This document shows, one piece after another, positions 4,925 through 23,735 of a stretch of DNA of 64,000 nt. Source of the stretch: Podarcis gaigeae (taxonomy: Eukaryota); assembly GCA_964106915.2 (NCBI GenBank), contig OZ066919.1; one strand, written 5' to 3'. Positions within the stretch are counted from its first letter, which is position 1. The number at the start of each line of letters is the position of its first letter. The notes beneath the pieces are model-generated. The model saw nothing but the letters and a program-made list of their open reading frames with translations. It did not search any database and was not told the origin of the DNA. The position numbers were made by a program, and so were the translations under genes.

Positions 4925-4976
<52 letters not shown>
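4925..4976. repeat. (AT)n microsatellite, left flank of the PLE
   Basis: Direct read. Confidence 0.99.
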
Positions 4977-4978
<2 letters not shown>

Positions 4979-5060
4979 TTTCGTAGATTTTCACGGGTAC
5001 AGGAATGCAGGTTTTGGTGTCCTCGGGTGTCTTCCCGTGTAAAAGTTGGGGTGTCTAGGC

Positions 5061-5094
5061 GACGTTTCGACGAGGTCTCACTCGTCATCTTCAG
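5061..5094 (-). ncRNA. Minimal type I hammerhead ribozyme in the pLTR (same sense as FAF1 pre-mRNA)
   Basis: Minus strand CUGAAGA-U-GACGAG-UGAGAC-CUCGUC-GAAA-CGUC: CUGANGA box, 6-bp stem II, GAAA, GUC triplet. Confidence 0.8.
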
Positions 5095-5824
5095 GCTGGT
5101 GCTTTCGGCTTCTTGTTACTGGAACAGAGCGGGATCTCAATGTTTGAGTTCCTATAAATACTGTAGAGGGGGTGTGGTGTCTAGCCTCCAATGTTCTGGG
5201 CAGAGAGGAAGTTCCCAGGCTAGTGTGCCTTTTCTTCTTTTGTTCCTTAATTACTTGAGAGATACCTTGAGTGATTTCTTGAGTGATATCCTGAGTACCA
5301 CTTAGGTGGGTCATTAGGTGTGGATTAGTTGCTAAAGTCTTTGTGTCTTGACCTCTTGAACTTTGTGAAGAGTTTTCCTGAGAAGATGGCTGTATTGCAC
5401 TTAGTTGTGCTTTGGCTTGGCTTCGTGTATAGGGGCGAGCTGTGGTTTTGTGGCTTGTGTCAGCCAGATCTGTGTAGGGATTGCAGGGGGGTGCAGCATC
5501 CGGAGGTGCCACCATGGATTGGCTACTGGATGGTGTCAGTAATTCATCTGTGGAGAGGGTCTGGGTTTGGGTCTGGTGTGGTTGATTGGTGTTGGCGTTC
5601 TGTGTGCCTCTGGATCTGGTGTCAGTTTTTGTGGAGAGGGCTAATTTCCAGATGTCTGGCAAGCGGGATGTGTCGTCACGCTTGTTCATGTTGTGAGGGT
5701 GTTTCTCTATCTCGATGGCTTCCATGATTATTCTCTTGTGGTGATGTTCCCTCTACAGTATTTATAGGAACTCAAACATTGAGATCCCGCTCTGTTCCAG
5801 TAACAAGAAGCCGAAAGCACCAGC

Positions 5825-5858
5825 CTGAAGATGACGAGTGAGACCTCGTCGAAACGTC
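5825..5858 (+). ncRNA. Minimal type I hammerhead ribozyme in the inverted pLTR
   Basis: CTGAAGA 5825-5831, stem II GACGAG 5833-5838 / CTCGTC 5845-5850, GAAA 5851-5854, CGTC 5855-5858. Confidence 0.8.
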
Positions 5859-5912
5859 GCCTAGACACCCCAACTTTTACACGGGAAGACACCCGAGGAC
5901 ACCAAAACCTGC

Positions 5913-5933
5913 ATATATATATATATATATATA
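5913..5933. repeat. (AT)n microsatellite, right flank of the PLE
   Basis: Direct read. Confidence 0.99.
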
Positions 5934-7341
5934 ATCTCATGGTTACCTTCTGCTATAATGCAATGAAAATTCAATGATATTATGCAATAAATTTCATAAA
6001 TTTATGCAATCCTCATAACTAAAAATTCTATCAAGAATAGAATGGAATTAGAGTAGAGAGAGGAAATGGATATGGTAGATAGAAATGCAGATGACATACA
6101 TTCATATTTACATAAAATAATCAGTAAATCTTGTACTAATGAGAAACAAGACTTAAATGGCTGAAAAATGTATTTAGTGCATTATTGTCAATCAATGTCT
6201 CTACAACCAGGATAACAATAATCTTGAATGGCAACACACCTATTATTACAAATTCCTAACTAAGTACTTCATTACTCGCAAATGTCACTCCCAATTTACA
6301 GAGTAACAGATAAATGTCTCATTACTGTATACCTGTCTTGTGTCTACTTTTTTTTTGTAAAACTGAAACTGTGACAGTTCTGGAAAACTTTATACTTCCA
6401 CGTGCTCATTTAGTTTGAATGAAAGAGATCTGTACGGTAATGTATATTTTTATTATTATATACTGAAAGGTACCTTTGCTAGAGTACTAAGTATGATTGT
6501 TTTCCTATTTTTTTAATCATGGGGGTAAGGAATGAAAGAAGTGGTAAGTTTTTAGCAGAGTGAAGCCAAATTCCTAGTAAGAAAGAAATGATGAGAATAA
6601 TCTCCCCATATAATAAGCTGCTTTGAACATGTGAAAGGTCGATTAAAAACATGAGATGGACTTCTGCTACAACCAAAATATTTTGTTCTATAACATTTCC
6701 ATTATTTCTATTACATTACTGTGATGTTATATGTTTCAGCTACCAACTTTATTATTTACAATTTCCATCATATTTTTTAGCTAACCAGTGACACACTTTC
6801 TTTTTAAATCAACATTACGAAAACCAGTATGAACAGTAAATAACAGTTTTTAAATTTGCCGTTCAATACTTGTGGCTTTCCAGGTGCAATAATCCCCCCC
6901 CCCCCCATTCAGATGATTTCCTCAAGAGATAATTTCCCCCAGTACTCAAAGACAATATTTAGCCATTAAATTGCTTTTGCAAATGCTATGAAATTTCTAG
7001 GAGTCACAGGTGCCTATTGGACTATGATACTAGGATCCTTCCCTCTCTCCAATCCATTACATTTGTATTTTGTGCTATATCAGCACCTCTTACCGGTTCA
7101 TTGTTGTAGCATTTCAGTATCAAATGTTCATCTTTCCCTGTTCATCTTTCCCATTTAAAATAAAGCAAACACCTGTCAAAGCTCCCTTCCCTCTGTAACA
7201 TGTCGTGCCATATAATGAACCTTAGCTTTTATTTTATTTATTTAAAAGCTATATATTCATTTTTAGCACTGACGCTCACTTCTGCTCTGACTTCTTTTAG
7301 AACGCTACAGGTGATGGCTGCCCGACCCTGTCCATTACATG

Positions 7342-7479
7342 CAGGGGTGGAGAGCCTTTGGCCCTTCAAATGTTGCTGAACTGGAAATTCCATCAGCTCT
7401 ATCAAGCATGGCCAATGACCATGGATGATGGGGACTTTAGTTCAGCAACATCTGGAGGGCCAAAGCTTACCCACACCTG
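7342..7479. mobile_element. ~135-bp palindromic hAT-type MITE (family A)
   Basis: CAGGGGTGG...tggcccttcaaatgttgctgaact ... agttcagcaacatctggagggcca...CACCTG; self-complementary, with related copies elsewhere in the window. Confidence 0.85.
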
Positions 7480-7790: not shown

Positions 7791-7879
7791 CTCATCTTTT
7801 ATGTCTTCCTGCTGCTGAGCACCGAAGATCTCCATTGCAGCCATCAGCCTCATCATTAGCTCATCCACTGTTGTGTTAC
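7791..7879 (-). CDS. FAF1: FAF1 exon (~exon 15), 89 bp, phase 1-0: NTTVDELMMRLMAAMEIFGAQQQEDIKDE
   Basis: Acceptor ctttgttgctag|GT, donor GAG|gtgaga; within ORF 7746..7943. Confidence 0.98.
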
Positions 7880-23580: not shown

Positions 23581-23735
23581 CTTGCTCTGTTTGCTTCTTT
23601 TGTCATATCCCATGCCCAGGTTATGAAGTTCTGACTAAGGTAGGAGACGATAGATTCGGCACAAAGCATTTGAGAACAGAACACGTTGGTTAGCACACTT
23701 TCGTCATGGTGGAGGTAGACAGCAAGCAGCTTTCT
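23581..23735 (-). CDS. FAF1: FAF1 exon (~exon 13), 155 bp, phase 0-2: RKLLAVYLHHDESVLTNVFCSQMLCAESIVSYLSQNFITWAWDMTKEANRA(R)
   Basis: Acceptor gtttttcag|AGA, donor AG|gtaaat; within ORF 23577..23765. Confidence 0.98.

Follow-up and report, generated by a model that had tools for sequence, protein, structure and literature searches.

The Poseidon element PAc of Anolis carolinensis has, like the family analysed here, an ORF that combines reverse transcriptase (RT) with a C-terminal GIY-YIG endonuclease and an ATG placed at the start of stem II of a hammerhead ribozyme (PMC11167929). According to the available portions of that study, the PAc protein acts on both target strands, cutting and extending each, and uses two neighbouring start sites; reverse transcription begins 111–118 nt into the ORF. 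The PAc hammerhead cleaves in vitro only together with the element's protein, being inactive without it, and RNA-seq data showed no read ends where it cuts, as far as the same portions go (PMC11167929). For the minimal hammerhead ribozyme (min-HHR), cleavage by a single copy is undetectable and that by dimers is weak. Min-HHR pairs on opposite strands, 100–700 bp apart, had been noted in 2014, double-stranded RNA (dsRNA) and editing being undiscussed in the accessible part of that text (PMC4209133). Tandem and inverted insertions of Penelope-like elements (PLEs) with a one-sided tail, an architecture identical to that of our copy, appear in PMC8557442, whose accessible sections likewise leave dsRNA and editing undiscussed. 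The same sections describe Naiad PLEs, which lack a canonical hammerhead and yet form inverted insertions with a tail on one side.

As to the RNA of such elements, the LINE that is massively edited in a lizard is Penelope, with more than 40 K edited sites, and A-to-I hyper-editing is a property that it shares with the present family; the available text on lizard hyper-editing, however, connects it neither with a built-in inversion of the arms nor with the core of the ribozyme (PMC5625713). In Drosophila, Penelope siRNAs have been described for which inverted copies are, alike, the source of dsRNA (PMC3681739, PMC3136932, both in the parts accessible).

The locus examined here lies in a 64,000-nt stretch of Podarcis gaigeae DNA (contig OZ066919.1), hereafter the window. 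Inverted Alu pairs in primate introns are fold-back substrates of ADAR, and in L1 twin priming the inversion is made at insertion. In comparison, the window family gets both arms from one insertion, with 100% identity and a duplicated 3′ end.

Structure and identity of the inserted element

Two arms of 166 nt at 5005–5170 and 5749–5914, 100% complementary and 578 nt apart, form the inverted repeat reported in the original prediction. It had also placed the ribozyme-sense arm second in either direction of transcription, and this was confirmed by the positions of the hammerhead cores at 5825–5858 on the plus strand and 5094–5061 on the minus strand. FAF1 is encoded on the minus strand, and its pre-mRNA does carry the inverted copy as had been proposed, with the element in sense to the gene. 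Read along the minus strand, the order is an (AT)n microsatellite (5913–5934), the inverted tail-less arm, the end of a 221-codon ORF, the pLTR with the hammerhead, a 27-nt tail and another (AT)n microsatellite (4925–4977), the (AT)n target adjoining the element at both ends.

The main arm (4978–5749, minus strand) is the 3′ part of a Poseidon-type PLE, comprising a C-terminal ORF fragment, the pLTR and the tail, with 99.6% identity to the full-length copy L031. Its open 221-codon fragment (5085–5749, minus strand) encodes, as judged from the translation and from the frame shared with copies L031–L033, the GIY-YIG endonuclease end and a low-complexity extension; the fragment by itself gave no Pfam matches, and its stop codon falls within the hammerhead. 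The left arm (5005–5170, minus strand), defined by self-complementarity and core position, is ribozyme-sense in the FAF1 pre-mRNA and the second to be transcribed. The other arm (5749–5914, plus strand), inverted and without a tail, is antisense there and transcribed first. The inversion joint is an overlap of 1–2 nt. The tail (4978–5004, minus strand) equals the start of the next ORF and ends 112 nt past the stem II ATG; present at the left end alone, it takes the element out to 4978, an extension that was not part of the original account.

The full-length copy L031 has a 990-aa ORF with an RVT_1 domain (59 bits, E 7e-16) and a GIY-YIG match (20.2 bits, E 7e-4) scoring below the curated cut-off of 22.6. 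The linker of this ORF contains one Cys, as seen by eye, which agrees with a Penelope/Poseidon-clade character. Features of EN+ PLEs are found in the family: one ORF that encodes RT and, C-terminally, GIY-YIG, as well as pLTRs, tandem and inverted insertions, and a tail at one end, of 27–30 nt compared with the 30–40 nt given for such elements. Judged by sequence, the window element is therefore classified as a 5′-truncated Poseidon-type PLE of the Penelope/Poseidon clade, on account of the RT and GIY-YIG ORF, the identity to L031, and an ORF start at stem II and a tail end placed as in PAc. As a separate observation, the intact tandem copy L031:1042–4011 has a long low-complexity C-terminal extension that reaches into the hammerhead, and within or beside stem II are found both the L031 stop codon and the ATG that follows.

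Host gene

The identity and strand of the host gene are fixed by a minus-strand exon at 23581–23735 (Pfam FAF1 PF21021, E 4.5e-27). The exon upstream of the host intron lies at 7791–7879 on the minus strand, is AG/GT-bounded and open, and has its donor about 1.9 kb ahead of the element in the FAF1 direction. The next FAF1 exon (L034:3479–3622 frame) is located about 6.4 kb past the left edge of the window, which makes the host intron about 14 kb long. Both this exon and the one at 7791–7879 we take, from their peptides, to belong to FAF1. The same intron also holds an imperfect 54-nt inverted repeat at 7342–7479 (76%, 30-nt spacer), possibly the relic of a small DNA transposon.

Hammerhead motif

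The minimal hammerhead core on the minus strand runs from C3 (5094) to C17 (5061), with the predicted cut between 5061 and 5060 and the core adenosines A6, A7, A9, A13, A14 and A15.1 at 5091, 5090, 5088, 5067, 5066 and 5065, respectively. Compared with the accessible description of min-HHRs (PMC4209133), the motif has the conserved core, the extra base after A9, the G10.1–C11.1 pair and the palindromic 15.2–16.2. Stem II has 6 bp, the 15–16 region is palindromic without a loop, and helix III is impossible within one copy. Helix I comprises only 2 bp (−2.0 kcal/mol) and has a pairing probability of about 0.001 even when the antisense arm is left out, and no longer helix I was found within 15 nt on either side. 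This value is at the weak end of the min-HHR helices I reported in the same partial source, which have 4–5 bp, or 2 bp in D. virilis (PMC4209133). The motif had neither of the marks of a canonical monomer-active hammerhead, namely three stable helices and an Rfam match: the search at gathering score gave no matches.

Because the FAF1 transcript contains one sense hammerhead copy, no dimer can form in cis. By analogy with the min-HHR and PAc ribozymes, a lone minimal ribozyme of this element type is predicted to be inactive regardless of the mirror arm. At the predicted cut site, no accumulation of read ends was seen in family RNA of a related species, as is also expected of an inactive ribozyme. 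At L001–L003, L014–L016 and L022–L024, new copies have inserted into (AT)n at the ends of older copies and thereby built nested arrays. Such arrays have two sense hammerheads per transcript and are loci where a dimer could form.

Family-wide architecture and insertion

Copies were counted genome-wide by pattern search for a 32-nt core and for tailed and tail-less ends. The core occurs in 6,693 exact copies, or 7,126 when up to 3 mismatches are allowed; with 94% of about 7,100 hammerhead cores letter-perfect, the family was amplified in a very recent burst. Ends with a tail number 4,216 across the genome, and tail-less ends preceding ATAT 3,452 (tail-less to tailed 0.82). Among the matches listed for C1 0–24.6 Mb, 91 clusters were distinguished, and 74 of them (81%) carry arms on opposite strands, 70 being recognised by pattern and 4 by BLAST or inspection. 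All 70 two-strand clusters found by pattern are antisense-first and none is purely sense-first. Inversion is the default of the family, in about 80% of insertions, and the antisense-first order is its general layout, not a peculiarity of the FAF1 locus. The spans of inverted copies form a continuous range from 87 to 3,549 nt, and among 31 checkable pairs the exact core was present in both arms in 25, in one arm in 3 and in neither in 3.

Simple divergent pairs (n=52) combined one tailed with one tail-less end in 47 cases, two tails in 3 and none in 2 (p 1e-9 versus 50:50). Such a regular occurrence of exactly one tailed end suggests coupling between the two priming sites, with one serving each target strand; this strict count comes from the window family, not from PAc.

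The mirror arm probably arises as a side effect of insertion, when both target strands have been cut and each of them primes. In the scheme that we infer, the endonuclease would cut both (AT)n strands, and each target 3′ end would prime cDNA from the 3′ region of the element, the first from the tail start at +112, the second about 30 nt upstream. An overlap of 1–2 nt would then join the two cDNAs, and both outer edges of the insertion would be element 3′ ends, by which the antisense-first order would be forced in either direction. The window tail ends at +112, against PAc start sites at +111–118, and the AT-rich targets and two priming sites are alike in the accessible account of PAc (PMC11167929). 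The distance from the cut site to the ATG is 28 nt in the window family and 26 nt in PAc, the latter as described in that account (PMC11167929). From the architecture and this analogy with PAc, two-ended priming is likely in the window's Poseidon family as well. The main texts of the open-access literature searched held nothing on point concerning twin priming in Penelope.

Predicted duplex in the transcript

That the arm duplex would outcompete hammerhead folding is borne out by prediction, with −348 kcal/mol for the duplex versus −33 and −47 kcal/mol for the single arms. In equilibrium folding, the probability of stem II fell from 0.91–0.99 to 0.00 once the antisense arm was added. Folding of growing transcripts, which was thermodynamic and not kinetic, gave a probability of arm pairing of 0.0 at 16 nt of the second arm and 0.98 at 26 nt. 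C3 emerges only after 76 nt of the second arm, i.e., pairing precedes the core. During FAF1 transcription, the arms would start pairing once about 26 nt of the second arm have been made, ahead of core synthesis; ADAR would edit the arm duplex and disable the ribozyme, and the intron would then be spliced out. As modelled here, sequestration of the ribozyme is probably real yet incidental, and selection on it would be unneeded.

A-to-G editing in family RNA

The RNA data comprised two bulk runs (X23, X24) and one single-cell run (X22) of a related species, with contigs from another individual (X20) as the DNA control. The reads derive from many copies of a family that differs at fixed sites and are not assignable to the FAF1 copy. 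At this family level, the proposed ADAR substrate with clustered A-to-G changes was found in RNA of the related species, the changes being strand-concordant and absent from DNA. Over 4978–5748, A>G/T>C places numbered 75/57 in X23 and 79/73 in X24, against 13/4 and 13/3 for C>T/G>A. In comparison, the DNA contigs of the related species had 8/6 A>G/T>C places versus 8/2 for C>T/G>A. In the arm alone, A>G and T>C places amounted to 18+23 (X23) and 18+31 (X24) versus 2 and 3 for C>T/G>A, with 1 each in the DNA contigs X20.

Base calls in the arm were summed over 33 rows of the best 40 of 59, 7 being left out as DNA-supported or of another type. In the rows listed, T>C accounted for 316/1589 (X23) and 615/1945 (X24) calls in first-mate-plus reads versus 9/795 and 0/1186 in the others, and A>G for 163/518 and 306/725 in first-mate-minus reads versus 4/980 and 5/1237 in the others. 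The A-to-G change occurs on whichever strand is RNA, in sense and antisense arms alike.

The editing extends through the ribozyme core. A6 was edited in 14/82 (X23) and 40/95 (X24) sense reads, A7 in 20/82 and 45/95, A13 in 17/91 and 42/108, A14 in 34/90 and 53/108, and A15.1 in 33/90 and 54/107. These five adenosines were thus changed in 17–50% of sense reads, with none in opposite-direction reads and none in DNA contigs; A9 does not occur in the rows listed. Mean editing levels by 5′ base were 0.41 for U, 0.38 for A, 0.25 for G and 0.23 for C, i.e., U/A was favoured over G, and among the listed sites 6/6 were edited after U and 9/16 after G. The single-cell run X22 had only 1–2 of 21–25 reads edited per site.

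Genomic variants as the source of the A-to-G changes were ruled out by the strand concordance, by their absence at core sites in the X20 DNA and by the lack of any genomic A15.1G. In this genome, none of about 7,000 cores has G at A15.1, as opposed to a third to half of the sense reads in the related species. RNA that has been edited probably does not serve as a template for new copies, a comparison that spans species and tissues. Judged from core conservation, editing would cause a loss of ribozyme activity; on what inosine at 15.1 does, the open-access literature searched held nothing. Alternatively, the editing could stem from duplexes formed in trans between separate sense and antisense transcripts. 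Apart from editing, reads of the two bulk RNA runs exit the element at 5095–5097, immediately 5′ to the hammerhead core, and continue in unrelated sequence; they represent short copies that are expressed elsewhere in the genome of the related species.

The original prediction knew of no description of a system of this kind, and for two parts of it this is wrong. Penelope hyper-editing in a lizard (PMC5625713) and siRNAs from inverted copies in flies (PMC3681739) are already published, as even the accessible portions of both papers show. For a retrotransposon ribozyme whose core is edited by ADAR, the open-access literature searched held nothing on point, and supplements, e.g., that of PMC5625713, may bear on the matter.

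Strand skew around single-armed and inverted copies

As a proxy for location in introns, strand skew was calculated in repeat-masked 10-kb flanks (L051–L182) of 66 of the 91 clusters at one chromosome end, 21 with a single strand and 45 of the simple inverted kind. When checked on FAF1, the proxy had the right sign in 7/7 chunks, but it is noisy, with a rho of 0.24 between left and right flanks. After reclassification, in which 4 loci were moved to the inverted class and 1 without a core was removed, 16 single-armed and 49 inverted copies remained.

The expected enrichment of inverted copies in transcribed-like DNA was absent by this noisy proxy (one-sided p 0.97 for inverted > single). The median absolute skew was 0.028 around single-armed (n=16) versus 0.021 around inverted copies (n=49), with p 0.053, having been p 0.011 before reclassification. 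With strongly skewed flanks, 4 of the 16 single-armed copies were in sense and 3 in antisense, and orientation tests on the skew proxy were null for the 66 clusters. The lower skew around inverted copies hints that duplexes in introns are selected against; the copies may also be so young that selection is not yet visible. Given 81% inversion overall and assuming at most half of the insertions in genes, at least 63% of the intergenic copies are computed to be inverted.

Discussion

Taken together, we consider it probable, with good confidence, that the locus is an ordinary recent PLE insertion, in which the mirror arm is a by-product of two-strand priming, the duplex is likely edited by ADAR, and the ribozyme would be inactive alone anyway. 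The original prediction went further in hypothesising that introns tolerate inverted copies because these neutralise their own ribozyme. For this, a lone sense ribozyme, perhaps activated by protein in trans, would have to cut host pre-mRNA, so that inverted copies survive preferentially in introns. The pairing of the arms predicted 26 nt into the second arm, ahead of C3, would fit such a role, as do the edited core adenosines in family RNA and a cut site without accumulation of read ends, although missing cut ends are equally expected of an inactive ribozyme. Moreover, the PAc protein activates the PAc hammerhead in vitro, according to the available part of PMC11167929, and by likeness to PAc a lone copy might cleave pre-mRNA wherever cells make the element protein. 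However, a minimal motif of this type is reported to be inactive when alone, inversion in about 80% of copies genome-wide implies at least 63% among intergenic copies (with at most half in genes assumed), and PLEs without a hammerhead, the Naiads, are likewise inverted in the accessible sections of PMC8557442. The skew proxy gave no enrichment and trends in the opposite direction. These points together oppose the claim of intronic tolerance, and we regard it as improbable. Cuts within introns can be tolerated, a point given no weight here.

The flank skew, higher at single-armed than at inverted copies (p 0.011, then 0.053), is in line with inverted arms in pre-mRNA being mildly selected against because of dsRNA sensing, disturbed splicing or DNA instability, with ADAR editing defusing them. 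The heavy editing in family RNA agrees with such a cost, as does the unwinding of long near-perfect duplexes by ADAR (PMC5625713, in the portion available). The proxy is nevertheless weak, n is small, several comparisons are uncorrected, and the window copy itself persists in FAF1; this explanation is possible, albeit we hold it tentatively and behind the ordinary insertion. It appears unlikely that the importance of inverted copies lies in supplying endo-siRNAs that silence the family. Penelope siRNAs match inverted regions in transgenic flies, but the same partial source states that they do not silence Penelope efficiently (PMC3681739). In related-species RNA, transcripts come from both strands of the family and are double-stranded. 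The family has, however, reached thousands of near-identical copies. Intronic duplexes are, furthermore, nuclear and edited, by which Dicer would be hindered, and this counts against the endo-siRNA explanation. It is likewise quite improbable that four-fifths of new Poseidon insertions disarm themselves, the arm trapping the hammerhead and ADAR rewriting the catalytic adenosines, and would then be neither activatable by protein nor templates, which would allow survival of sense intronic copies in protein-making germ cells.

Returning to the ordinary insertion as the preferred reading, sequestration and editing are supported at the family level and largely known already, and the FAF1 locus itself is ordinary. 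Intronic tolerance through a self-neutralised ribozyme would, if true, be a new truce between host and transposon, but the evidence leans against it. The A-to-G change through the catalytic core of the hammerhead is the part not found in the literature searched. The pattern of one tail per insertion (47/52) is a usable constraint on the mechanism of PLE integration. Overall, with about 80% of insertions supplying their own perfect duplex, the built-in mirror arm offers a likely mechanism for Penelope being the lizard's massively edited LINE.
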